Source: a virus. Taken from it: a stretch of 64,000 nucleotides of DNA. This document shows, piece by piece, positions 3,222 to 35,071 of the stretch (within the stretch, counting starts at the first letter, position 1; each line of letters starts with the position of its first letter). The position numbers and the translations under genes are program-made. The notes beneath the pieces were generated by a model. The model had not been told where the DNA came from, searched no databases, and saw nothing but the letters and a program-made list of their open reading frames with translations. The stretch is taken from the UHGV virus genome UHGV-1374678; one strand, given 5' to 3'.

Positions 3222-3469
3222 AAGAGAAGACTGTAGAAGTAAAAAGAAAAATTCATAAATTCTATTGCGATAAATGTGGAGAATATTTAGGTGAGAGTGA
3301 AGAGTTTGATGATGAATATTATGAGGAAATCGGATATGTTACTCAACGTGTTGTTGTAAATGGAAAACAATACATCTATAAAAGACATCTGTGTAGCAAA
3401 TGTAAAGAAAATTTCTATAAAGATCTAGGCAATGTTTTGGAAATTGTTGGTTTTGTAAATGTTGGATAA
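3167..3469 (+). CDS. zinc-ribbon protein
   Basis: Two CxxC pairs (CDKCGE ... CSKCKE). Confidence 0.45.
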   Translation: MDKIYYTCREMETIMENVEEKTVEVKRKIHKFYCDKCGEYLGESEEFDDEYYEEIGYVTQRVVVNGKQYIYKRHLCSKCKENFYKDLGNVLEIVGFVNVG

Positions 3470-3471
3470 TT

Positions 3472-3780
3472 ATGCAGATTATTAGTATGCCAAGATGTTC
3501 TGGAAAAACAATGCTTGCAATTAAGAGGACGAGAGATATGAAAAGAAGAGAAAGGATACAGTTGACCAAATGGGCAGATAAATTGTCTGATAAAGACTTG
3601 GAAGATGCATATTATGATGCAGTTTATGACTGTTTAGGAAGTGAAACAGAAGAAATGTATGAACTAGGTTATGATCCAATAGATATTGCAGAACAAGAAA
3701 AATGTGAAAAGTATCTTAGCGAAAAGGCTGATGTGTTGGAAGAACTATGTGAAAGACGAGGAATTAAGTTATGGGAATAA
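3472..3780 (+). CDS. hypothetical acidic protein
   Basis: ORF track only. Confidence 0.4.
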   Translation: MQIISMPRCSGKTMLAIKRTRDMKRRERIQLTKWADKLSDKDLEDAYYDAVYDCLGSETEEMYELGYDPIDIAEQEKCEKYLSEKADVLEELCERRGIKLWE

Positions 3781-3801
3781 AGAATAAAGGAGTATAGACC
3801 A

Positions 3802-4362
3802 ATGGGAACTAAAGATAATACTTATGCAAACACAGGAAAGAGATTATATTTTCTATCAGACGATGTAGATAATGAATCAATTGGACAACTTACATGGAAC
3901 ATATTGCATCAGCTTGCAGAAGATGATGAGAAAGATAAGAAAGAAAAGGATTATAAACGTGAACCAATTAAAATCTACATCAATTCGTATGGTGGAGTAG
4001 TTTATGACATGTGGGGATTGATTGACATTATTGTAAATAGCAAAACACCAATTTATACATATTGTACCGGTTATGCCATGAGTGCAGCTTTCAAGATTTT
4101 CTTAGCAGGGCATAAGCGATATTGTTACAAGCACTCCACATTCATGATTCATCAACCTGTTTGTTGGATTAGTGGAAAATATACAGATATTAAAGAAAAC
4201 ATGGCAGAACATGATCGAATGAATGAATATATTATCCAGTATATTCTTGATAGAACATATTTTAAAAAAGAAGAACTGGATAATATTTGGGAAAAGAAAC
4301 AAGACTTTTATATTAATTCAGAAGATGCTGAGAAATATGGAATTGTTAATGAAGTTTTGTAA
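3802..4362 (+). CDS. clpP: ClpP-family serine protease
   Basis: YINSYGGVVYDMWGLIDII ... TYCTGYAMSAAF ... FMIHQP aligns with the ClpP core (YINSPGG, GQAASMG catalytic Ser, MIHQP catalytic His). Confidence 0.8.
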   Translation: MGTKDNTYANTGKRLYFLSDDVDNESIGQLTWNILHQLAEDDEKDKKEKDYKREPIKIYINSYGGVVYDMWGLIDIIVNSKTPIYTYCTGYAMSAAFKIFLAGHKRYCYKHSTFMIHQPVCWISGKYTDIKENMAEHDRMNEYIIQYILDRTYFKKEELDNIWEKKQDFYINSEDAEKYGIVNEVL

Positions 4363-4380: not shown

Positions 4381-5511
4381 ATGAGAGTATATAAAGATAA
4401 ACAATTTCTTGTCTTTGATTTTGAAGACGGAAGAAATGTTAAGTATGATTTTGCGACCAAGACAGCGATCGGAATCAAAGGAAAACCTGTAAAAGATTTG
4501 CGAAGTCAGTTAAGTGGAATTTCAATGAACCGAGTAATTGAAAATTGTGACGATAAGAAGTATGCAAAATTCTTGAATTTTGTAATGAGAGCAGAATCTT
4601 CATATCATGAAATTTGGAATATCGGAACTGTACTTGATAGAGTTCCATTTTATTCAAGATTTGAGCAATTATTTTCTGCTGGTATAGATGATATTGTTGA
4701 CGTAAGAGAACAAAACTTGAAAAGTTTTAAATATTCTATTGAAGACATTCCAAAATCACTTCTTAAAATATGTAGAAAATATTCTATAAAAATTTCCAAC
4801 GACACTATTAGATTTTATAAAGAAAACCCAAACGCATATTGTATTGCCTATAAGTTAGATTATTTAAGTTTGGATTATTACGACATCTATAAAATATGGA
4901 AAACATCAGAAAACATGTATGATGCAAACGCAAAATCATATTTTAACATCCTTGTAAATGAGTACGGATATAATGCAAAAGATTTATGGCTATACATAGA
5001 TAGAATAAAGACATTTGAAGCAATTGAAGATATGGCTTTTCTTATTCGTGAATTATGTGATTATGCGGACATGATGAGGCAGCTTAGTAATAAGTACGAC
5101 AAGTATCCAAGACATTTTCTTACAACTCATAAAATTGCATGTAGAAATTATGACAGAATGAAGAAAGAATTTTCAGAAGAGTTATTTAGAAAAAGAATTA
5201 AAAAAGAATATGAATGTTCATTTGGAGAATATGTATTTATTTATCCTAAGTCTACTCAAGATATCAAGGATGAGGCAGCCTGCCAAAGTAATTGTGTTAG
5301 TTCTTATATAGATAAGGTTATTGATGGATACTGTCATATATTATTCTTGAGAAAAAAGAACAGTCCAAAAGAAAGTCTTGTAACAATAGAGGTTAGAAAT
5401 GATCAGATTGTCCAGGCTAAAAGAAGATTCAACGATGATGTAACAGAAGAACAGAAAGAAGTAATTGATAAGTTCAATAAGAAATTTGGAAAGGAGATTA
5501 AGGCAGCATGA
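4381..5511 (+). CDS. hypothetical protein (376 aa)
   Basis: Long ORF with an RBS. No confident family assignment from sequence alone. Confidence 0.5.
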   Translation: MRVYKDKQFLVFDFEDGRNVKYDFATKTAIGIKGKPVKDLRSQLSGISMNRVIENCDDKKYAKFLNFVMRAESSYHEIWNIGTVLDRVPFYSRFEQLFSAGIDDIVDVREQNLKSFKYSIEDIPKSLLKICRKYSIKISNDTIRFYKENPNAYCIAYKLDYLSLDYYDIYKIWKTSENMYDANAKSYFNILVNEYGYNAKDLWLYIDRIKTFEAIEDMAFLIRELCDYADMMRQLSNKYDKYPRHFLTTHKIACRNYDRMKKEFSEELFRKRIKKEYECSFGEYVFIYPKSTQDIKDEAACQSNCVSSYIDKVIDGYCHILFLRKKNSPKESLVTIEVRNDQIVQAKRRFNDDVTEEQKEVIDKFNKKFGKEIKAA

Positions 5512-5963
5512 TTAAGGGTGATAAGATAAGACTTAAAGCAAAAATGGGTGTGTTTGATAACATCGGAGAAATCTGTGAAGTAATAGATATAAGTGATGGT
5601 GGAGTGATTTGTTTTAAATTTGGTAATGGAAGTCATCTTGGTTGTATGTCATTCGATGAATACGAGAAGTATTTTGAATTGGTTGAGGAAGAAAAAGAAC
5701 CAGTAAAAAGAGTTTGGAGTAAGTGGAAGCTTGGTTATATTACTTTTTATAACCAAACTGGAGAATGTATTGAAGAGGATATTTATTATAGAGAAAACAG
5801 AAAACGTGTGCAAGTAAAACTAAAAGATGGAAGTTTAAGAGCGAATGCATCTTGTTGTAAAGAAGACGAGTTCGATTTTTCCAAGGGAAGAGAATTAGCG
5901 GAAAAACGACTGATTATGAAATATCTTGCCAGAGAAGTAAAGGAATATGCAGATTCATTGTAG
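5508..5963 (+). CDS. hypothetical protein
   Basis: ORF whose start overlaps the upstream stop (ATGA). Confidence 0.45.
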   Translation: MIKGDKIRLKAKMGVFDNIGEICEVIDISDGGVICFKFGNGSHLGCMSFDEYEKYFELVEEEKEPVKRVWSKWKLGYITFYNQTGECIEEDIYYRENRKRVQVKLKDGSLRANASCCKEDEFDFSKGRELAEKRLIMKYLAREVKEYADSL

Positions 5964-5983
5964 AAGATAGGAGAATAAAATAA

Positions 5984-6445
5984 ATGATTATATTACTTAT
6001 TATAATTTCAATCATAGGATTTATTATAGCTTATGTAATTGATGAAGATTTTGCTGGTTTTTTCTCAGTATGTTTCTGTGTATTACTTGTCATTGGTATG
6101 TTTTTAGGGATTTCTGTAAGTAATGGAAAAACCATAGACGAAAAAATTGTAATGTACCAAGAAGAGAATAACAAAATAGAGAAACAAATCGACACATTGG
6201 TTTCTAATTATATGAACTATGAATCTGATACATATGAAAAAATAAAATCAGAAAGTTCTATTACATTAGTTTCTATGTATCCAGAACTGAAATCAGATAA
6301 ATTAGTAGAAGAACAAATTTCCGTATATGAAGAAAACAATAAAAAGATCAGAGAATTCAAGGAAGATAAGATCAACCTGAAAGTTAAGAAGTGGTGGTTG
6401 TATTTTGGAGGTCGAATGAAATCGAACTTTCATAATGGAGAATAA
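5984..6445 (+). CDS. membrane-anchored coiled-coil protein
   Basis: N-terminal TM segments followed by a coiled-coil region. GGAGAATAAAATAAATG junction motif. Confidence 0.45.
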   Translation: MIILLIIISIIGFIIAYVIDEDFAGFFSVCFCVLLVIGMFLGISVSNGKTIDEKIVMYQEENNKIEKQIDTLVSNYMNYESDTYEKIKSESSITLVSMYPELKSDKLVEEQISVYEENNKKIREFKEDKINLKVKKWWLYFGGRMKSNFHNGE

Positions 6446-12871: not shown

Positions 12872-14210
12872 GGAATCCCATTAGCTTTAGCTGATAGATA
12901 AAGAGCTGTACAAAACAGCGAATATACAAATGAAAGTGAGGTGATAAGTAAATGTTAAAAGCTTACAAATATAGATTACATCCTAATAAACAACAGGAAA
13001 TTCAAATACAAAAAACTTTCGGATGTTGTAGGTTTGTTTACAATTATATGCTTAATTATAAACAGGAGTTGTATGAAACGAAGAAAGAATTTATGAGTAA
13101 GTTTGATTGTAATAATTATGTGAATCGTGTTCTTAAGAAAGAATATGAATGGTTAAAAAATGTAGACAAATTCGCTCTTACAAATGCAATTTATAATATG
13201 GATTCAGCTTATCAGAAATTTTTCAAAGAACATACTGGTTATCCAAGATTTAAAAGTAAAAAAGATAATAAAAAGTCTTATAAAACAAATAACAATGTAA
13301 ATAAGGGAATAGCAACTATTCGTATTGAAAAGAATAGATTAAGACTTCCTAAAATTGGAATGGTAAGAATTGTTTATTCAAGAGAAATAACAGAAAGGAT
13401 AAAATCTGCAACTATTTCACAAGATCCATCTGGAAAATATTTTGCATCAATATTATTTGAAGCAGAATACGAATATTTACCAAAGAGCAATAATTCAGTC
13501 GGTGTTGATTTAGGAATTAAGGATTTACTTATCACTTCGGATGGTGAGAAAATTAAAAACATTCTTACTACAAAGAAATATGAAAATAAATTAACAAAAG
13601 AGCAAAGAAAACTTGCTAAGAAACAAAGAGGTAGTGTCAACTATGGGAAACAGAGAATAAAAGTAGCTAAAATATATGAAAAAATTCGTAATATCAGACT
13701 ATATAATTTACATCAAATTTCTCACAAACTTATAATCGAAAACCAAGTGATAGTGAGTGAGAATTTAAATATAGAAAGTATGCGACAGAATCATAATCTT
13801 GCAAAATCTGTATCTGGTTGTAGTTGGTACGAATTAACTAGACAGTTATTTTATAAGGCTGAATGGTATGGAAGAGAATATATAAAAATAGATAGATTTT
13901 TTGCAAGTAGTCAGTTATGTAATTGTTGTGGTTATCAAAACAAAGAGGTTAAAGATTTATCTGTTAGAGAATGGATATGTCCGGAATGTGGAACTGTTCA
14001 TGATAGAGATGTAAACGCTGCGATTAATATTCTTAATGAAGGATTGAGATTGCTAGAAGTAGCTTAAATATAAAACATACGGCAATATCTGTCGGAATTT
14101 ACGCCTGTGGAGATAGTAGGTTACGAGGTTTATGAAGCAGGAAGGTTTATAAAAACCAGATAAAAACAATATTTCAAGTGGAGAATAAATAATATGTAGC
14201 ATATATAAAG
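12872..14210 (+). mobile_element. IS200/IS605-family (IS1341-like) insertion element, tnpB only, with an ωRNA expected at the 3' end
   Basis: Left-end block AATCCCATTAGCTTTAGCTGAT ... GAATATACAAATGAAAGTGAGGTGAT lies immediately upstream of tnpB. It is conserved with the second copy at 19701. No tnpA is present. The right boundary is approximate. Confidence 0.6.
12952..14067 (+). CDS. tnpB: TnpB (IS605 OrfB family, RuvC-like, RNA-guided nuclease family)
   Basis: N-terminal [15 protein letters not shown] is the OrfB hallmark. C-terminal zinc finger CNCCG...CPECG. RuvC-III-like [11 protein letters not shown]. Confidence 0.85.
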
Positions 14211-14222
14211 GGAGGTAGTTTT

Positions 14223-15080
14223 ATGGATAGAAGTGATCTCGCAGAAAGAATGAAAGGCTATGAAAAAAGGAATAGATATTATCTTCAGCGAAGGATGCCA
14301 GTAATTTTGAGGCTAGACATGAGAGCTGGACATAGCTTCACAAAAGGATTTGAAAGACCGTTTGATGAAGTTTTTATTAAAGCAATACAAGAAACGGCAA
14401 AATATTTATGCGAAAATGTTCAAAATTGTAAGTTATCTTATCAACAAAGTGACGAAATTACATTATTACTTGTTGATTATGAAAAAATAAATACAGATTG
14501 TTTCTTTGAATATAGAGTAGATAAACTTTGTAGTATTGCAGCAAGTATGGCTACGATGAAATTTAATCAAGTTTTTAAAGAATTATCTTATAGAGAGTCA
14601 GAAAATTTGGAAATTATTTGTAGAAAAAATCCATATTTAGAAAACAGAGATTGTTTAACTAAAATTCCTAATGTACATACCAATTCAGCAGATAAAGGTG
14701 CAATGTTCGATTGCAGATGTTTCAATATTCCAAAGGAAGAAGTAACTAATAGCATTTATTGGCGACAACTTGACGCTACACGAAACTCTATTCAGATGGT
14801 AGGACAAGCTAATTTTTCGCACAAAGAATTGCAGAACAAGTCTTGCAACGATATTCAGGATATGCTTATGACTCAGAAAGGTATTAATTGGAATGATTTG
14901 CCGCTATATCAAAAACGTGGATCTTGTTGTATTAGAAATCATATGATTTCACTACCATATGGCGATTACCTGCTAGATGAAACCGCAGGTGAAAACGAAT
15001 GGATTATTGATAAAGATATTCCAATCTTCAAAGGTGAAGGTAGAAAATATATTGATAATCTTGTTTTCGTAGGAGAATAA
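14223..15080 (+). CDS. Thg1-like protein (tRNA-His guanylyltransferase family 3'-5' nucleotidyltransferase)
   Basis: [24 protein letters not shown] aligns with Thg1 [36 protein letters not shown] aligns with AYGQSDEYSFVF. The catalytic Asp residues (LD.., SDE) are conserved. Confidence 0.75.
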   Translation: [285 protein letters not shown]

Positions 15081-19700: not shown

Positions 19701-20995
19701 AAATTCCATTAACTTTAGCTGATGGGATGAATGACAGAGAATAACTGTATATGAGTAATAATTAGAAATCTAAAAAACAGAGAATATACAAATGAAAGGA
19801 AGTGATTGTAGATGTTAGTAGCATATAAATATAGATTATATCCAAACAAAGAACAGCAAGCATACTTTGCGAAGTGTTTTGGATGTGTACGATTCATCTA
19901 CAATCGTATGCTTTCAGATAAGATTGATTATTATAAAGAAACAAAACAGAAATTAAACAATACACCAGCTCAATATAAGAAAGAATTTGAATGGTTAAAA
20001 GAGGTTGACTCTCTTGCATTGGCAAATGCACAGATGAATCTACAGGCAGCTTACAATAATTTTTTCAAAAGACCAGAAGTGGGCTTTCCTAAATTTAAAA
20101 GTAAGAAAAGTCATAAATTTTCTTATACAACTAATAATCAAGGTGGAAATATTTATGTATCTGATAGGTATATAAAACTTCCTAAAATTGGTTTGGTTAG
20201 AGTAAAGAAACATAGAGATTTTGATGGATTAATTAAGTCTGTTACTGTTTCTCAAAACCCTTCTGGTAAATATTATGTCTCTGTTTTGGTTAGCCAAGAA
20301 GACAAAGAAAAACTACCTATTAACAATAACGAAATAGGAATTGATCTTGGTATTAAAGAATTTGCAATTACTTCTGATGGAGAAATGATTGAGAATCCAA
20401 AATATCTTAGAAAGTCTGAAAAGAAATTAAGAAAATTACAAAAGAATTTATCTCGTTGCAAAAAAGGAAGTAAAAACAGAGAAAAATGTAGAATTGAAGT
20501 TGCAAAACAACATGAAAAGATTACAAATCAAAGAAAAGATTTTTTACATAAATTAGCTACGAGAATTATTCGTGAAAATCAAACAATAGTTCTTGAAGAT
20601 TTAAAAGTAAAAAATATGATGAGTAACCATAAATTAGCAAAATCAATTGCAGATGTATCTTGGAGTGAATTTGTAAGGCAATTGGAATATAAAGCTGATT
20701 GGTATGGACGAGAAATTATAAAAATTGATACTTGGTATCCATCTAGCCAGATATGTTCTAATTGTGGTCACAGAGATGGAAAGAAAGCATTGTCTATAAG
20801 AGAATGGACATGTCCTAATTGCGGAACGCATCATGAAAGAGATATTAATGCAGCAATAAATATTCTCAATGAAGGTTTGAGAATGAGAACGGCAGGAACT
20901 GTCGAGATAGCCTAAGTAAACTTATCTCATTAGAGATATTGATTAGGAAGCCCAACGAGCTTTAGCTCGTGGGTAGTTCACAGATAATATTCCAA
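19701..20995 (+). mobile_element. second IS200/IS605-family (IS1341-like) tnpB-only element
   Basis: Left end AAATTCCATTAACTTTAGCTGAT ... GAATATACAAATGAAAGGAAGTGAT is homologous to the copy at 12872. The downstream region contains GAGCTTTAGCTCGTGGG, which echoes the left-end CTTTAGCT motif. The right boundary is approximate. Confidence 0.6.
19812..20915 (+). CDS. tnpB: TnpB (IS605 OrfB family)
   Basis: [17 protein letters not shown]-terminus. CSNCGH...CPNCGT zinc finger. [12 protein letters not shown] RuvC-III motif. About 45-50% identical to the first copy by eye. Confidence 0.85.
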
Positions 20996-22404: not shown

Positions 22405-23334
22405 TTGAGCAATACAAATGAAAGAAAAACTTCTACAGATGGACTTAGAGTGTTAAGTCTCTGTGGTGGTGTAGAAACTGGATTATACGCATTACAGCAA
22501 TTGGATATTCCGGTGAAAGAGTATCATACATATGAGATTCTGCCTGAAGCTATTGCAGTTTCTCAGTACCATTTTCCGTTTGTGATACATCATGGTGATT
22601 TATATGAAGCGGATTTTAATCAATTCAAAGGATTTGACTTGTTATTAGCAGGAACTTGTTGCCAAAGTTTGAGTAAAGTCAGAATAGAAAATAAACAAGT
22701 CAACAATGGTTTAGATGGCAAATCAGGTATTTTCTTTAAAGCCATCGAATGTCTTAAGGTAATTCAGCCAAAATATTTCATGTTTGAAAATGTAATACCG
22801 AGTAGAGAAGAGGATCTAAATACAATGACAGAATGCATTGGTGTTGACCCCTTGCTTATTGACTCTGCAATTTTTAGCGCACAGTCGAGAGAAAGATATT
22901 ATTGGACAAACATTCCATTGGGTGAATTACCGGAAGAATCTCCATTAGTTTTAAAAGACGTGATGGAGAATAATGTAAATGAGAAATATTTCTATAAAAA
23001 AGATTTTGAAATCATCGACATGAATAAACGTGTTTGTGCAGAGTTAAAGGTTAATACGATGGAGATGGGTAGACGTATCTATAATCCTGAGTTTAAGTGT
23101 TGTACATTAACGTGTGTTGGTGGTGGATACAACGAAAAGAAAGTTATGGATCATGACAGACCACGAAAATTAACACCTGTTGAATATGAAAGATTACAGG
23201 GACTACCGGATAGATATACGGATGTATTAATAAATGGAAGAAAAATAAGTGATACGAAACGATATTCTATGATGGGTAATGGTTGGAATGAACCGACAGT
23301 AGAGTGGATATTAAGTGGATTGAAAAAAGTGTAA
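22405..23334 (+). CDS. DNA (cytosine-5)-methyltransferase, small orphan type
   Basis: Motif I LSLCGGVETG. Motif IV GTCCQSLS, an unusual CCQ in place of PCQ. ENV (FMFENV). QSRERYYW (motif VIII). RKLTPVEYERLQGLPD (IX). MMGNGWNEPTV (X). The start codon is uncertain (TTG at 22405). Confidence 0.8.
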   Translation: MSNTNERKTSTDGLRVLSLCGGVETGLYALQQLDIPVKEYHTYEILPEAIAVSQYHFPFVIHHGDLYEADFNQFKGFDLLLAGTCCQSLSKVRIENKQVNNGLDGKSGIFFKAIECLKVIQPKYFMFENVIPSREEDLNTMTECIGVDPLLIDSAIFSAQSRERYYWTNIPLGELPEESPLVLKDVMENNVNEKYFYKKDFEIIDMNKRVCAELKVNTMEMGRRIYNPEFKCCTLTCVGGGYNEKKVMDHDRPRKLTPVEYERLQGLPDRYTDVLINGRKISDTKRYSMMGNGWNEPTVEWILSGLKKV

Positions 23335-23465: not shown

Positions 23466-24443
23466 ATGATAAAAAGCATAAATTCATTCGGACTAACGGT
23501 ATTAAGTTTATGTGATGGAATGTCGTGTGGACAGATAGCGTTAGAACAGGCAGGTTTTAAAGTCGATAAATACTTTGCGTCAGAGATTAAAGACATTGCA
23601 ATTAAAGTAACCAAAGAAAATTATCCAAACACAATTCATATTGGTGATGTAAATAAAATTTTCTATAAAGATGGAATATTACATACTGAAGTCGGAGATT
23701 TTGAAACAAATATTGATGTAGTTATGTTTGGAAGTCCTTGTCAAAGTTTCTCGAGAGCAATGATTAAAGAAAGAAAAATTGGTTTGGATGATCCAAAGCG
23801 TTCAGGTTTGTTTTATGAATGTAATAGAGTACTAAGAGAAGTAAATCCAAAATATTTTCTCATGGAAAATGTTGTTATGAAAAAAGAAGATGAAGAAGTT
23901 ATCAGTAAAATGATTGGAGTAAAGCCTATTAGAATCAATTCTTCTCTTGTTGTTGGTCAACTTAGAGATAGGTATTATTGGACTAATATTCCAGAAGTTA
24001 CAGTACCGGAGGATAAGAAAATAACATTGCAAAGTATTTTAAATGATGGTTATACGCCTGACAAGAAAGCAAAATGTCTTCGTAGAAATGATTCACATGG
24101 ATTTTACAACGGATGCGGTTGGACTCCGATCAAAAGATTCCATAGGTTTTACTATAAATCTTTTGGAACAATGGTATTTCCATCAAAGGAATATTTTGAA
24201 AATTGTTTGGAAGTAACTAAGAAAATATTAAATGGGAGAAAGTCGTCAGCAAAAATGTATGATGATTACAATGGTCATGATTTTGATGATGCAAGATATT
24301 TATGGAAAGAAGAAAGAGCAAGGTTGCAGGGAGTTCCTGAAGAATATGTGAAATATATGTCTGAAAAAGACGCTGCTGACGTTCTTGGAGATGGTTGGAC
24401 AGTACCAGTAATTGCTCATATCTTTAGTTTTATGAAGTTTTAA
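23466..24443 (+). CDS. DNA (cytosine-5)-methyltransferase, small orphan type
   Basis: GSPCQSFS (motif IV), FLMENV, GQLRDRYYW, ERARLQGVPEEY and LGDGWTVPV motifs. Confidence 0.85.
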   Translation: MIKSINSFGLTVLSLCDGMSCGQIALEQAGFKVDKYFASEIKDIAIKVTKENYPNTIHIGDVNKIFYKDGILHTEVGDFETNIDVVMFGSPCQSFSRAMIKERKIGLDDPKRSGLFYECNRVLREVNPKYFLMENVVMKKEDEEVISKMIGVKPIRINSSLVVGQLRDRYYWTNIPEVTVPEDKKITLQSILNDGYTPDKKAKCLRRNDSHGFYNGCGWTPIKRFHRFYYKSFGTMVFPSKEYFENCLEVTKKILNGRKSSAKMYDDYNGHDFDDARYLWKEERARLQGVPEEYVKYMSEKDAADVLGDGWTVPVIAHIFSFMKF

Positions 24444-25657: not shown

Positions 25658-25745
25658 GAGAATAAATGGCGAGTTTCGTTGGAGAATGTTTCTTAGGAGG
25701 TAATGAAAATGTGCAAAAAAAAGTAACAAATCAAGATATAAGGGG

Positions 25746-26354
25746 TTGAGATTTAATTACAAGATAGATGGAAAAGTATTAATGGATAAATATCAAACGA
25801 TTGATGATTTTCTATCAACAGAATTTCCCAAGAACAATAATCCATTGTCTCCAATAGACGAAACAATATTGTTCAATATTAAGTGGAATAATAATCCAAT
25901 ATTATCGTGTTCTGGTGAACATAAATTAAGTGAAATAAAAAATATTTTAAAGAATTTTGATCCAAACCAACTGGAAAGAAAAGAGATTTATTCAATTGAA
26001 GAAGTTGAAGAAAAAGTAAAAGATGTGTTGTTTGAGAAAAAACGTAATTTGTCTAAAGTGGATTTTGATGGAGATATGATTAAGGGCAACAGTCAGAGGT
26101 ATCAGACATTCTTTACCAAAGGTTGTAGATGTGTAAAGTGTGGAATCGAAGGCAAGTATTTTGTAAAAGAGAAACATTTAAAAGATATAAGTTTCCATCT
26201 TAATCTATATGCCATTGATGAAAACGAAAAAGAAATCTTGATGACAAAAGACCATATTATCCCAAAATCAAAGGGTGGAACTAACGATATTAGCAATTAT
26301 CAGACAATGTGTAAAAAATGCAATGAAGCAAAAGAAAATAGATTAGAAGATTAA
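25746..26354 (+). CDS. HNH endonuclease
   Basis: CRCVKCG ... TKDHIIPKSKGGTNDISNYQTMCKKCN matches the HNH motif with its zinc ligands. The start may be ATG 25782 instead of TTG 25746. Confidence 0.8.
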   Translation: MRFNYKIDGKVLMDKYQTIDDFLSTEFPKNNNPLSPIDETILFNIKWNNNPILSCSGEHKLSEIKNILKNFDPNQLERKEIYSIEEVEEKVKDVLFEKKRNLSKVDFDGDMIKGNSQRYQTFFTKGCRCVKCGIEGKYFVKEKHLKDISFHLNLYAIDENEKEILMTKDHIIPKSKGGTNDISNYQTMCKKCNEAKENRLED

Positions 26355-26421
26355 AGAAAGGAAAAATAGAAAAGTTCCTATAGGATAAAACGTGCGTTAC
26401 TTACTACGGTAAGAGGAACTT

Positions 26422-27729
26422 ATGTATTGTGCTTATGTTACAACATTAAAAGGATTAAGAAAACATAGTAATGCAGATAGATTACAGTGTGTTGAAGTTT
26501 TTGGACAAAATGTAATTGTTGATTTGAGCTATAAAGATGGACAAAAGGTAGTTTTCTTTCCATCTGACGGACAATTATCAGAAGAGTATGCAAAAGATAA
26601 TAATCTCGTAAGAATGAAAGATGAAAATGGTAATAATATTGGCGGATATATGGACGCTGAAAAAAGAAATGTTACTGCGATTAGACTCAGAGGTGAAAAA
26701 TCAGAGGGTTTAGTATTGCCTATAGAATCACTTTCTAAGTATGTGGATGTTACAAAATTAAAAGATGGAGATCAGATTACCGTCATTGGTGGTCATGAAA
26801 TCTGTAGAAAATATATTCCAAAAAGTAGTAGAAGAAGCAACAACTCAAGAAAAAGTAGTGATAAGAAGAAAAAAGATAACTCGATTTCTTATCCATTCTT
26901 CGAAGAACACAAAGATACTGCACAGCTTGCGTATAATATGTCTGCGTTTAAACCCGGTGATACTGTATATATTACCCGTAAGCTTCACGGCACGTCAGCT
27001 CGTACCATGAAGACAATTAAAGTAACAAAGAAGAATAATGTATTTAGAAGATTTTTACATATGAAACCTAAATACGAAAAAGAAGTTTCTGTAGTTACAG
27101 GAAGTAGACGAGTTGTATTAAAAGATATGAATAGTACAGATGGTTATTATTCAGATAATACATTCAGAAAGAAATATCACGATTTGTTAAAAGACAAACT
27201 TCCGGAAGGATTTGAAATTTTCTATGAGATTGTTGGTTATGTAAACGAGACAACACCAATCATGGGAACTGTGTCAAACAGCAAAGTAAAAGATAAAGAA
27301 TTCAAGAAGAAATTTGGAGATACAACTGTATTTTCTTATGGCTGCAAACCAGGTGAAAACGAAATGTATGTGTATAGAATGACTGCAACAACAGCAGATG
27401 GTACAGTTGTGGAAATTCCTTGGGAGAATATAAAAGTATGGTGTGACAAACTTGGTGTAAAACATGTACCAGAATTGGAAAAATTTATCTATACAACGCC
27501 TGAAGACTTAAAAGAAAGAGTAAATAAGTATCTTGATGGTATGCCAGTTGATGAGATTGGTAAAACACATATTGCAGAAGGTGTAGTTGTTCGTATTGAC
27601 AATAGAGATTCATTTACTGCATATAAAGATAAAGTGTTCGAATTCAAGGTATGTGAAGGAATTATTAAAGACAATTCAGACGCACCAGACATGGAAGAAG
27701 CAGAAGAATTGCTTAAGGAGATTGTATAA
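26422..27729 (+). CDS. RNA ligase (Rnl2-like nucleotidyltransferase) with N-terminal tRNA-binding OB-fold (Myf/Trbp111-type) domain
   Basis: N-terminus KHSNADRLQCVEVFG...GQKVVFFPSDGQL...RGEKSEGLV matches the tRNA-binding consensus (HPDADKLYVCKVDVG...GQKVVVALPGAVL...RGVESEGML). Ligase motif I TRKLHGTSA (KxHGxN). Motif III-like FEIFYEIVGY. Motif IV AEGVVVR. Confidence 0.75.
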   Translation: MYCAYVTTLKGLRKHSNADRLQCVEVFGQNVIVDLSYKDGQKVVFFPSDGQLSEEYAKDNNLVRMKDENGNNIGGYMDAEKRNVTAIRLRGEKSEGLVLPIESLSKYVDVTKLKDGDQITVIGGHEICRKYIPKSSRRSNNSRKSSDKKKKDNSISYPFFEEHKDTAQLAYNMSAFKPGDTVYITRKLHGTSARTMKTIKVTKKNNVFRRFLHMKPKYEKEVSVVTGSRRVVLKDMNSTDGYYSDNTFRKKYHDLLKDKLPEGFEIFYEIVGYVNETTPIMGTVSNSKVKDKEFKKKFGDTTVFSYGCKPGENEMYVYRMTATTADGTVVEIPWENIKVWCDKLGVKHVPELEKFIYTTPEDLKERVNKYLDGMPVDEIGKTHIAEGVVVRIDNRDSFTAYKDKVFEFKVCEGIIKDNSDAPDMEEAEELLKEIV

Positions 27730-28619
27730 TGAATAAGCCAACATTATGGGTTATGGTCGGTTTGTCTGGAAGTGGTAAATCAAGTGTAGCAAAAGAAATC
27801 GCAGAGAATAATTCTAACACAATTATCGTATCATTAGACAATATTTGTGAAGAATTGACTGGTAAAGTAGAAGATCAATCTAAAAATGAAGAAGTATCTA
27901 AAGTATTTCACAAAAGAATTCGTGAGACATTGGAGAATAATACTAATGTAGTTGCTGATGCGACAAATATTACAATGAGGTCGAGACGAGCAATTATTGA
28001 AAATGTCAAAAGTATTGAATGTCATAAAATCGTTTATCTGATTCCAAAACCATTTAGACAATGCAAAATTGATAACCTGAATAGACAACATCCTGTGCCT
28101 GAAGAAGTATTAAATGGGCAGCTTAGAAAATTCCAGATTCCGTTCATGGAAGATGGTTTTGATGAAGGAATTATTTATTACATACATAATAAAAATAGAT
28201 TGGATGCGTTAAAAATGTTTGATAATATGGAAGGTTTTAATCAACAAAATCCGCATCATACTTCAACACTTGCAGACCATTGCAAGAATGCGCATGAATT
28301 GTTTTCAAGACATGGTTATCCGTCAAAATATAATTTGGCAGCGTTATTTCATGATTATGGGAAATTGTACTGTAAAGAATTAGATGATGATGGAATTGCA
28401 CGTTTTTACGGACATGATTCAATTGGTTCATATATGATTTTAGAAAATTTTGCAGAAATATTTTATAAAGATGTTGCCGATATGTGTTTTTTAATTAACT
28501 ATCACATGATGCCTTTTGATTGGACAACAGAAAAATCTAAGGAACGTTGGAAGAAAAGGTTTGGAGAATATAAATATCAGATGCTTTTGGATTTTCATGA
28601 ATGCGATAAAGCGAGGTGA
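27729..28619 (+). CDS. polynucleotide 5'-kinase (T4 Pnk-like) fused to HD-domain phosphohydrolase (Cca-type 2',3'-cyclic phosphodiesterase/phosphatase-like)
   Basis: Walker A GLSGSGKSS. VVADATNITMRSRRAI aligns with T4 Pnk VIISDTNLNPERRLAW. C-terminal HxxH...HDYGK...GHD has the HD-superfamily signature, like the HDIGK of the bacterial CCA-enzyme HD domain. Confidence 0.75.
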   Translation: MNKPTLWVMVGLSGSGKSSVAKEIAENNSNTIIVSLDNICEELTGKVEDQSKNEEVSKVFHKRIRETLENNTNVVADATNITMRSRRAIIENVKSIECHKIVYLIPKPFRQCKIDNLNRQHPVPEEVLNGQLRKFQIPFMEDGFDEGIIYYIHNKNRLDALKMFDNMEGFNQQNPHHTSTLADHCKNAHELFSRHGYPSKYNLAALFHDYGKLYCKELDDDGIARFYGHDSIGSYMILENFAEIFYKDVADMCFLINYHMMPFDWTTEKSKERWKKRFGEYKYQMLLDFHECDKAR

Positions 28620-33267: not shown

Positions 33268-33908
33268 AGAATATATAAATAGGAAATTATTTCACTGTTT
33301 GCTGAAAACTTAAAACTACAATCATTCAGACTTTTGCAAGTATAGCCTGAATAAAAACAATAAAGAAACTTGCAATATCCTAAAACATAAAAGGTAAGTA
33401 GAATATTAAGTAGAATATACAGATGAATGTTTAATGCACATTGTTAAACAGATAGCTGTAAAGAGTAAAGTTCAAATGTCAAGTAGTAAAACTCAAAATT
33501 CAAAGATTATGTTTTGTGTAAAGTTTAAATAGTAAATAGTAAAGATATAAAGTTTTATGAAATCTTCGATAACAGTTTTCAGTATGATTGTACTTGACTA
33601 TAAGTTGTCTGCGAAGCTGGTAAATGGTGAATTAATTATAAATGTCAACCTGCATAATAATATGCATAGTTATCGTGTGGGTTGACAAATAAGCACCCAA
33701 GGTGATGCGGTACGTTGCACCTGGCTTATATCCAGCGATTCTCCGTTCGACTCGGAGTGGGTGTACTGTATCTGAATATTCACAGAATGTGTTATTAATT
33801 TCCTTTCTTTCTATGAACATTCTAGTTCAGATACAATGTTTTTCATAACTTCCTTTTTGTTGGGTTGGCAACTTACCCTAGAGACAAAAAAGTTGCAAAT
33901 AAAAATAT

Positions 33909-34050
33909 GGTGGATGACAGCAACGGAACGAAATTTGTTGTGCATGACAAATTCTAGTATGAGTAGGAACGCTGTGGTTGTAAGTGAAGTTGTTAAGAAG
34001 ATGCACATTCGAGGCAATGAATCTTATAAAGGTGGTTCGAATCCACCATC
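33909..34050 (+). ncRNA. tRNA-like element / orphan tRNA 3' half
   Basis: Perfect T-arm GGTGG-TTCGAAT-CCACC at 34031-34047, followed by ATCCATC. That 7-mer can pair with GGTGGAT at 33909 to give a 7-bp acceptor-like helix with one G:U. The intervening 110 nt does not fold as a canonical tRNA. Confidence 0.3.
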
Positions 34051-34445
34051 CATCTTTTAATTTCAAAACCTGTCGTTCAGCCTGTATGGTGAGCAAATTA
34101 TAAAATTGGAACACAAGCCTTAAATGAACGTAAAACAAAAGGAATCGAAGTACAAGATTCTGGAGTAGACCTAGACACAGTACCGTTATAAGATAGCTCA
34201 TAAACTGAAAAGATATATGTTTTTGAGTGAAAAAAGTAAGTAAAGAATGAAATACTGAAAATTCTTATGAAACAGAAATAGAAATCGCTCAAATTGCCAC
34301 GATGTTATGAAAGGTCATTGTGGAAATTCAATGGGCTGTGGTGAATAAGTAAACACATAGAGCTTTGACCTCTACATTAATGGGAGCGTTACCCATCAGC
34401 CTAGCTTGTGAGATTTTGGAACATCTCACAAATAAAATTCTTTCA

Positions 34446-34481
34446 TGGTATAAGTTTTTAAAGATGTGCAGAAATGCACAT
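34446..34481 (+). promoter_or_regulatory. possible extended -10 promoter and hairpin upstream of tRNA-Leu
   Basis: TGGTATAAG (TGnTATAAG-like extended -10), then the inverted repeat TGTGCA-GAAA-TGCACA directly 5' of the tRNA. Confidence 0.3.
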
Positions 34482-34484
34482 CGA

Positions 34485-34567
34485 GCTGGCATGGCGGAAT
34501 GGTAGACGCAATGGACTTAAAATCCATCGGTGGAAACACCATACGAGTTCAAGTCTCGTTGCCAGTA
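34485..34567 (+). tRNA. tRNA-Leu (anticodon UAA)
   Basis: Hand fold: acceptor GCTGGCA/TGCCAGT, D-arm GCG..CGC, anticodon stem ATGGA/TCCAT with loop CTTAAAA (anticodon TAA), long variable arm GGTG-GAAA-CACC, T-arm ACGAG-TTCAAGT-CTCGT, discriminator A. No CCA encoded. Confidence 0.85.
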
Positions 34568-34726
34568 TTAGTCATATGAGACATTTTATTCCTTGAGCAA
34601 GAATGATGAAGTCGGTACAAGAGATTGCTCATTCTCTGTATTTTTCATTTGTGTGTTATGCGAGCAGCACGAATGACATATGGCATTACCCCCAACATAG
34701 GATATTTACATTTTACAAAAATGGTT

Positions 34727-34796
34727 TGGCTGTTAGCTCAGTTGGAAGAGCATCTATTGCAAGAGAGGGTCACAGGTTCGATTCCTGCACAGTCAA
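34727..34796 (+). tRNA. degenerate tRNA-like gene (pseudo-tRNA?)
   Basis: Canonical 5' half TGGCTGT-TA-GCTC-AGTTGGAA-GAGC, T-loop GGTTCGATTCC and a pairing acceptor 3' strand ACAGTCA. The anticodon-arm region is 2-3 nt too short to fold canonically and the T-stem has an A:C mismatch. Overlapping ORFs 34603..34884 are probably spurious. Confidence 0.4.
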
Positions 34797-35071
34797 CTCG
34801 ACGCAGAAAACATTTGATTTTTGCATTCATGTTTTGCACGCCTCCTTTCTTAAAGTGCAAAGTAGGTTGTTAGTTTATTGGTAGAATATCTTATTGAAAA
34901 ATAATGTAATCCTGTTCTTTTCGCTTTCTTAACGATGTGACACATTATAATAAGAAGAAACACGTTCGATCCGTGTACAATCTATCAGTCTTGGTTGACT
35001 TTCCCACTTTCAAACGAAGACTCTAAATTCGGTAGTAAAGTGGAGAATATAATCATAGGTGGTGAAAAATT

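Follow-up and report, generated by a model that had tools for sequence, protein, structure and literature searches.

Which class of RNA ligase is encoded by an open reading frame (ORF) that joins an OB fold to a nucleotidyltransferase core, what does the enzyme repair, and does its N-terminal domain bring it to tRNA? The ORF in question lies at 26422-27729 on the plus strand of UHGV virus genome UHGV-1374678, of which a stretch of 64,000 nucleotides (hereafter, the window) was analysed. Read from the window sequence, it runs uninterrupted from ATG to TAA (435 aa plus a stop), and a Shine-Dalgarno-like AAGAGGA (26411-26417, +) stands 4 nt before the ATG. An earlier interpretation made from the letters and translations alone (the sequence-only reading) had described the product as an Rnl2-like RNA ligase fused to a tRNA-binding OB domain and had considered that architecture unusual for phages; its coordinates were correct, and all the peptides it quoted were found in place (KHSNADRLQCVEVFG at residues 14-28, GQKVVFFPSDGQL at 40-52, and RGEKSEGLV at 90-98). 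The protein is read here as a divergent phage-type Rnl5 ligase that would do the sealing in a heal-and-seal module of two genes, a reading to which a probability of about 0.8 is given.

Assignment of the ligase to the Rnl5 class

The protein was matched by the Pfam family RNA_ligase (PF09414; residues 181-395, 4.7e-11) and, across its full length, by PHROG 968 'RNA ligase' (3.2e-68). The NCBIfam model TIGR02306 (RNA_lig_DRB0094) was matched at 4.8e-15 over residues 12-193, with 55.3 bits against a cut-off of 151.15, and the Pfam entry PF21189 (PHA02142 OB-fold domain) gave a sub-threshold match at residues 6-101 (20-24 bits against 27). When PDB sequences were searched with phmmer, the RNA ligase of Naegleria gruberi (NgrRnl) was the sole match, via its N-terminal domain; a profile from 66 diverse relatives, which are 33-52% identical to the window protein in the alignment, improved this match to 2e-9 and extended it from the OB domain to the end of motif I.

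Structure prediction, a check proposed with the sequence-only reading, gave a confident model and a fold match over the whole length. AlphaFold2, run on the 66-sequence alignment, returned a predicted local distance difference test score (pLDDT) of 93.1 and a predicted template modelling score (pTM) of 0.90. In a Foldseek search of the PDB, thirteen NgrRnl entries came out on top (E 3.1e-18 to 3e-16), aligned over the whole length with a template modelling (TM) score of ~0.70, normalised by the target. They were followed by T4 Rnl2 and REL1 at 3e-8 to 6e-7 and then by Rnl3 and Rnl1 and by distant matches to DNA ligases, the latter at 1e-4 to 1e-3; the match to NgrRnl, an Rnl5 enzyme (3e-18), thus stood ten orders of magnitude ahead of every other ligase family.

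The domain plan and the motifs follow the same class. The N-terminal OB domain, the signature module of Rnl5, occupies residues 1-132 (26422-26817, +), and the nucleotidyltransferase (adenylyltransferase) domain with motifs I, III, IV and V occupies residues 159-405 (26896-27636, +); past motif V the model contains two short helices alone, with no appended domain. Residues K187, S192, E269, G272, Y306, Y318, E386, G387, K402 and K404 are invariant in 66/66 relatives. Motif I, KLHGTS (residues 187-192; 26980-26997, +), aligns with that of NgrRnl and contains Lys187, the predicted AMP-accepting lysine; the pattern T185-x-K187-x-H189-G190 is the counterpart of T163, K165, H167 and G168, which are essential in the Deinococcus radiodurans ligase DraRnl (PMC1807946). 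Motif III is FYEIVGY (Glu269; 27220-27240, +), motif IV is EGVVVR (residues 386-391, Glu386; 27577-27594, +), corresponding to 305-EGVVV-309 of DraRnl (PMC1807946), and motif V is K-D-K (Lys402 and Lys404; 27625-27633, +). The N domain of NgrRnl contacts ATP or metal through Arg4, Asp53 and Lys121 (PMC7261155). Lys121, which contacts ATP, corresponds to Lys130 of the window protein, a position held by Lys in 64/66 relatives and by Arg in 2/66, and Asp49, the counterpart of Asp53, is mostly conserved (53/66).

From the profile matches, the fold ranking and the invariant motifs, the protein is identified as an ATP-dependent RNA ligase of Rnl5 architecture. The sequence-only call of an ATP-dependent RNA ligase is borne out by PF09414 and by the invariance of the catalytic residues, and the C-terminal region does carry the lysine-adenylate motif, the absence of which had been named as evidence for another kind of enzyme. 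The label 'Rnl2-like' holds for the shared nucleotidyltransferase core and the Pfam family, whereas the fold of the whole protein is nearer to Rnl5 (3e-18 versus 3e-8). Membership of Rnl2 itself was rejected: the all-helical C-terminal domain is absent from the model, and the match to 2hvr (2.9e-8) covered 287 columns with a TM score of 0.30, normalised by the query.

The coupled end-healing gene

The TAA of the ligase gene overlaps the ATG of the next gene (TAATG), and the two genes are translationally coupled. The downstream gene (27729-28619, +) encodes an end-healing enzyme of 296 aa, with a P-loop polynucleotide 5'-kinase domain followed by a C-terminal HD phosphoesterase domain (Pnk-HD). 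The kinase domain was matched by AAA_33 (1.4e-20), bacter_Pnkp (2.9e-12) and the C. thermocellum Pnkp kinase (4mde, 2e-9); the C-terminal domain was matched by HD (5.9e-4), and its nearest relative was the HD region of tRNA CCA-adding enzymes (3e-6). A promoter and terminator scan predicted no terminator in the region, including the junction of ligase and Pnk-HD, and found promoter-like sites to be no commoner than in shuffled sequence.

Linkage was followed in 80 related viral loci, which formed 46 lineages after dereplication at 90% identity of the ligase. In 29 of these lineages a kinase homolog lay no more than 6 kb from the ligase; it was downstream and on the same strand in 27, with the HD half following in 26. 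The same ligase-kinase order occurs in Bacillus phage vB_BcoS-136, where the kinase gene comes directly after the ligase gene. This linkage, taken with the translational coupling, points to a heal-and-seal RNA repair module, in which a ligase is encoded together with a 5'-kinase and a predicted 2',3'-phosphoesterase. In L020, the largest and most sampled lineage lacking Pnk-HD, calcineurin-like metallophosphoesterase genes (3281-4126 and 5277-5834 of that locus) lie just upstream of the ligase; their products may be alternative 3'-end-healing enzymes.

The reaction steps proposed for the module were drawn from Rnl5 family biochemistry, homology and gene linkage. Rnl5 enzymes seal 3'-OH/5'-PO4 nicks in duplexes with an RNA 3'-OH strand, by way of ligase-AMP and with a preference for Mn2+ (PMC4408790, PMC1807946). 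In the healing step, the kinase domain of Pnk-HD would convert a 5'-OH to a 5'-phosphate, and the HD domain would remove a 2',3'-cyclic or 3'-phosphate. In the sealing step, Lys187 of motif I would attack ATP to form ligase-AMP, with the OB domain packed over the active site and helping to orient the pyrophosphate leaving group; the AMP would then be passed to the 5'-phosphate end, and attack by the RNA 3'-OH would seal the break, preferably a nick in a duplex or stem. Phage sets of ligase, kinase and phosphoesterase have been described as counter-defence against tRNA cleavage (PMC7824862). Together, the ligase and Pnk-HD could undo breaks that host ribonucleases make in RNA while the phage infects the cell, the most plausible targets being tRNA anticodon loops.

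Descent of the N-terminal OB domain

The N-terminal domain was modelled with a pLDDT of 95.8. When a profile of 41 family N domains was aligned with the B2 domain of E. coli PheT using hhalign, a probability of 95.8% and an E value of 6.9e-9 were obtained, and HPNADKL and KLRGEPSEGML of PheT B2 fell in register with HPNADRL and KLRGEKSxG of the family. Sub-threshold matches to tRNA_bind (PF01588) were found in 25 of the 41 N domains (best E 8.8e-5), and PF21189 was matched by all 41. The window N domain alone scored 13.9 bits against PF01588 (E 0.059; gathering score 27 bits), and no tRNA_bind match at E <= 1 was returned by the full-length Pfam scan of the window protein; the likeness emerged only with the isolated domain, the family profile and the structure. 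The fold is that of the OB subtype of Trbp111, CsaA, the MetRS C terminus and PheRS B2. Residues 1 to ~130 are therefore a genuine remote homolog, above chance, of the Myf/Trbp111/PheT-B2 tRNA_bind OB fold, and this kinship to tRNA-binding domains is evolutionary. The sequence-only reading had recognised the fold correctly, and the profile matches to tRNA_bind that it anticipated are present, albeit below threshold.

Occurrence of the architecture

An N-terminal OB module followed by a C-terminal adenylyltransferase domain, with no C-terminal appendage, is what defines Rnl5, the present name for the clade of DraRnl and NgrRnl (PMC1807946, PMC4408790, PMC7261155). By 2007 a putative homology between the N module of DraRnl and the OB fold of PheRS was already on record (PMC1807946, which credits earlier work), and Rnl5 homologs in Aeromonas, Caulobacter, Mycobacterium and Sinorhizobium phages were reported by Unciuleac and Shuman (2015). 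A tblastn search of 50,697 deposited phage genomes matched 379 records, 373 of them with >=80% query coverage; most of the matches listed are annotated 'RNA ligase'. Phages of Bacillus and Lysinibacillus gave identities of 51-54%, and 296 mycobacteriophage records gave ~30%. When 1.84 billion cluster representatives were searched exhaustively with HMMER, 2,417 clusters were matched at E <= 1e-3, and 869 were matched at E <= 1e-30; almost all are full-length proteins of 405-460 aa. Given the published definition, the 373 phage records, the 2,417 protein clusters and the PHROG 968 match (3e-68), the claim that the architecture is unusual for phage RNA ligases did not hold. The gene is a divergent but ordinary member of a known family, and no current understanding is overturned.

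An identical ligase protein was found in 140 metagenome index blocks, on contigs of up to 365 kb, and the window may accordingly belong to an uncultivated phage of very large size. When the 14 kb surrounding the gene were compared with deposited phages by megablast, the one match was an irrelevant 354-bp stretch of a Listeria phage, which indicates that there is no close cultured relative; no nucleotide-level similarity to the window was found among deposited phages.

Alternative readings of function

Several observations weigh against an Rnl5 ligase acting in RNA repair. The scores lie under the curated cut-offs of TIGR02306 and PF21189 and the protein is ~95 aa longer than DraRnl and NgrRnl, so that it is not an equivalog of DraRnl; the ATP-contacting Arg4 of NgrRnl is without a conserved basic counterpart, position 2 being Tyr in 53/66 relatives; no biochemical characterisation of this phage Rnl5-type subfamily (the PHROG 968 phage proteins) was found in the literature searched; and a Pnk homolog within 6 kb is lacking in 17 of the 46 lineages. 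Of 50 related loci, just 6 have tRNA genes that close to the ligase, and tRNA-gene linkage was dropped as support for tRNA targeting and is not counted as evidence. Finally, DraRnl has been proposed to act in DNA repair, and the physiological substrates of Rnl5 have been called 'uncharted' (PMC5397189, PMC4408790). A DNA ligase or mRNA capping enzyme belongs to the same covalent nucleotidyltransferase superfamily, and DNA ligases do appear among the distant Foldseek matches; nevertheless, every top match is to an RNA ligase (Rnl5 first, Rnl2/REL1 next, Rnl3 and Rnl1 after them), the Pfam RNA_ligase family is matched, motif I has the KxHGxS form of DraRnl, and the model lacks a C-terminal OB domain such as DNA ligases or capping enzymes have. 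This identity was rejected on the fold ranking and the motif pattern and is considered extremely improbable. An Rnl5 ligase could also serve phage DNA replication or repair by sealing RNA-OH/pDNA nicks at a short RNA patch, while Pnk-HD heals the ends of DNA. In its favour, ribonucleotides are required by Rnl5 enzymes only at the 3'-OH side of the duplex nicks that they seal, and D. radiodurans becomes more sensitive to ionising radiation when DraRnl is lost (PMC5397189, PMC4408790). The gene also stands amid DNA-metabolism genes, which encode C5 methylases, an HNH endonuclease and, at a greater distance downstream, an AAA_24 protein, and in the L020 lineage the ligase neighbours AAA_24 and a DnaB-like helicase. 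The kinship of the HD half to tRNA CCA-adding enzymes argues the other way, as does a separate ATP-dependent DNA ligase a few genes off in a related Bacillus phage, and a role in DNA metabolism is judged quite unlikely.

A further question is whether the OB domain, whatever its descent, targets tRNA. In the sequence-only reading it would steer sealing to tRNA; as a working tRNA-binding module that recruits the ligase specifically to broken tRNAs, it would have a part comparable to that of the C-terminal domain in T4 Rnl1. In favour of recruitment, the domain is truly homologous to the tRNA_bind fold, the signature motifs HPNADxL and RGxxSxG are conserved family-wide, a conserved basic linker adjoins it, and the neighbourhood resembles one of RNA or tRNA repair (Pnk-HD, together with the Thg1-like protein and tRNA genes described below). 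However, the OB domain of characterised Rnl5 enzymes acts in step 1, contacting the gamma-phosphate of ATP (PMC7261155, PMC4408790, PMC1807946), and a catalytic role explains the conserved residues equally well. Deletion of this domain from DraRnl or NgrRnl impaired adenylylation and overall nick sealing and spared the sealing of pre-adenylylated nicks (PMC1807946, PMC4408790, PMC7261155), and the requirement of both enzymes for an RNA 3'-OH strand was located in the nucleotidyltransferase domain (PMC7261155, PMC4408790). No report of tRNA binding by any Rnl5 N domain was found in the literature read, the documented role being support of adenylylation (PMC7261155). Moreover, the OB domain is not basic (net charge 0 in the window protein, family median -1), and AlphaFold2 packs it confidently against the nucleotidyltransferase domain (pTM 0.90). 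Recruitment to tRNA is on these grounds doubtful. An equally tentative proposal is that the OB domain of the phage subfamily, perhaps with the basic linker, has kept or regained tRNA binding and that the ligase and Pnk-HD form a dedicated repair pathway for anticodon breaks made by host anticodon nucleases; if true, a physiological substrate would be known for an Rnl5 ligase for the first time, and the kinship of its OB domain with aminoacyl-tRNA-synthetase appendages would have a function.

Traits of the phage subfamily

Relative to the ~340-aa prototypes, the Rnl5 ligase of the window shows differences of degree, being longer by ~95 residues. The interdomain linker (residues 133-158; 26818-26895, +) is basic and was modelled with low confidence (pLDDT 51-74); its net charge is +7 in the window protein and positive in 66/66 relatives (+2 to +12). 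A long beta-hairpin follows motif I in the AlphaFold2 model. The C-terminal tail (residues 406-435; 27637-27726, +) is short and forms no separate domain; it consists of helices at 406-418 and 424-434 in the model and carries a net charge of -7, being acidic in 66/66 relatives (-3 to -9).

Some ligase homologs are interrupted by inteins. In P0123, P0128 and P0153 (790-800 aa), Hint/Intein_splicing inteins with a LAGLIDADG endonuclease were identified, and P0126 and P0132 (about 600 aa) contain apparent mini-inteins. The insertions lie at or just past motif I (KxHGTS), as expected for a catalytic site.

Genomic surroundings

The window has a GC content of ~32%; its GC skew is strongly positive along the whole length, and virtually all of its long ORFs lie on the plus strand. 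Directly upstream of the ligase is a gene for a free-standing HNH endonuclease (25746-26354, +; HNH_5, 2.3e-13), for which the start is at 25710 in metagenome contigs. In other lineages (L035, L046, L056 and L073), the placing of HNH homologs relative to the ligase and Pnk genes differs, from which the enzyme is probably a mobile homing endonuclease that targets the ligase locus and stands outside the repair chemistry.

Other mobile elements were noted. Two TnpB/IS605 OrfB-type ORFs (12952-14067 and 19812-20915, +) carry HTH_OrfB_IS605, OrfB_IS605 and Cas12f1-like TNB domains. On the near-identical metagenomic contig L086, a TnpB copy (5266-6369) replaces two small ORFs just downstream of Pnk-HD, from which these elements appear to be actively mobile in the phage population. 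Two adjacent C5 cytosine DNA methylase genes lie at 22405-23334 and 23466-24443 (+); the methylase gene at the same position on L086 (1-725) codes for a product of 836 aa that contains Hint and intein-splicing domains.

Genes related to tRNA were also found in the window. A Thg1-like protein, an unusual cargo for a phage, is encoded at 14223-15080 (+) and was matched by the tRNAHis guanylyltransferase family (PF04446, 2.3e-27) and weakly by Thg1C. Members of the Thg1 family are 3'-5' polymerases able to repair tRNA 5' ends. A tRNA gene cluster at 33693-34797 (+) contains Ile-TAT, Gln-TTG and Leu-TAA and a fourth, odd tRNA-like gene (34727-34797), to which ARAGORN assigned a two-base 'gc' anticodon. 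The Thg1-like gene and the four tRNA genes fit a theme of translation-apparatus repair.

The practical value of the analysis lies in correct annotation, namely of an Rnl5-type ligase that is paired with a Pnk-HD end-healing enzyme in a low-GC phage, which is abundant and uncultivated. With about 870 clusters at E <= 1e-30 and frequent linkage to end-healing enzymes, the subfamily would be a convenient system in which to address tRNA repair by Rnl5 ligases and substrate choice by their OB domains. The wider significance is modest, and the physiological substrates of Rnl5 are still called uncharted (PMC5397189).

Comparison with known systems

The window protein shares with DraRnl and NgrRnl (PDB 5COT) the order of an N-terminal OB domain and a nucleotidyltransferase domain with nothing C-terminal to it, as well as motif I TxKxHG, motif IV EGVVV, the lysine of motif V and the counterpart of Lys121. 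It differs from them in length (435 versus 340-342 aa), the extra sequence being the basic disordered linker, the beta-hairpin and the acidic helical tail, in its identity of ~16%, and in being phage-encoded and coupled to a Pnk-HD gene. The PHROG 968 proteins of Bacillus phages vB_BcoS-136, Kirov and PBC2 and of Mycobacterium phage Lumos have the same architecture, with 30-54% identity over >=95% of the query; among deposited phage homologs the best protein identity is 54%, and the region has no megablast match.

T4 Rnl2 and the kinetoplastid RNA editing ligases have a related nucleotidyltransferase core (PF09414), and a preference for nicks would be shared with them if the window enzyme behaves as other Rnl5 ligases do. 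The T4 Rnl2 family, however, has an all-helical C-terminal domain and no N-terminal OB domain, and the Foldseek alignment to Rnl2 (~290 columns, TM 0.30 by the query) is far shorter than that to NgrRnl. In contrast to the tRNA_bind OB domains of PheRS beta (B2), Trbp111, CsaA, the MetRS C terminus and EMAPII/Arc1p, the window domain falls under the Pfam gathering score, and the Rnl5 OB domain is fused to and packed on the ligase active site, with demonstrated catalytic support.

As read from the genes, the module follows the logic of T4 Pnkp with Rnl1, of bacterial Pnkp/Hen1 and of Runella HD-Pnk, in which a 5'-kinase and a 2',3'-phosphoesterase act with an ATP-dependent ligase. Its phosphoesterase is an HD domain C-terminal to the kinase, whereas that of T4 Pnkp is a DxDxT domain and that of CthPnkp is calcineurin-like; the domain order of Runella HD-Pnk is the opposite of that in Pnk-HD of the window, and the ligase is of the Rnl5 type rather than Rnl1, as in T4, or Rnl4.

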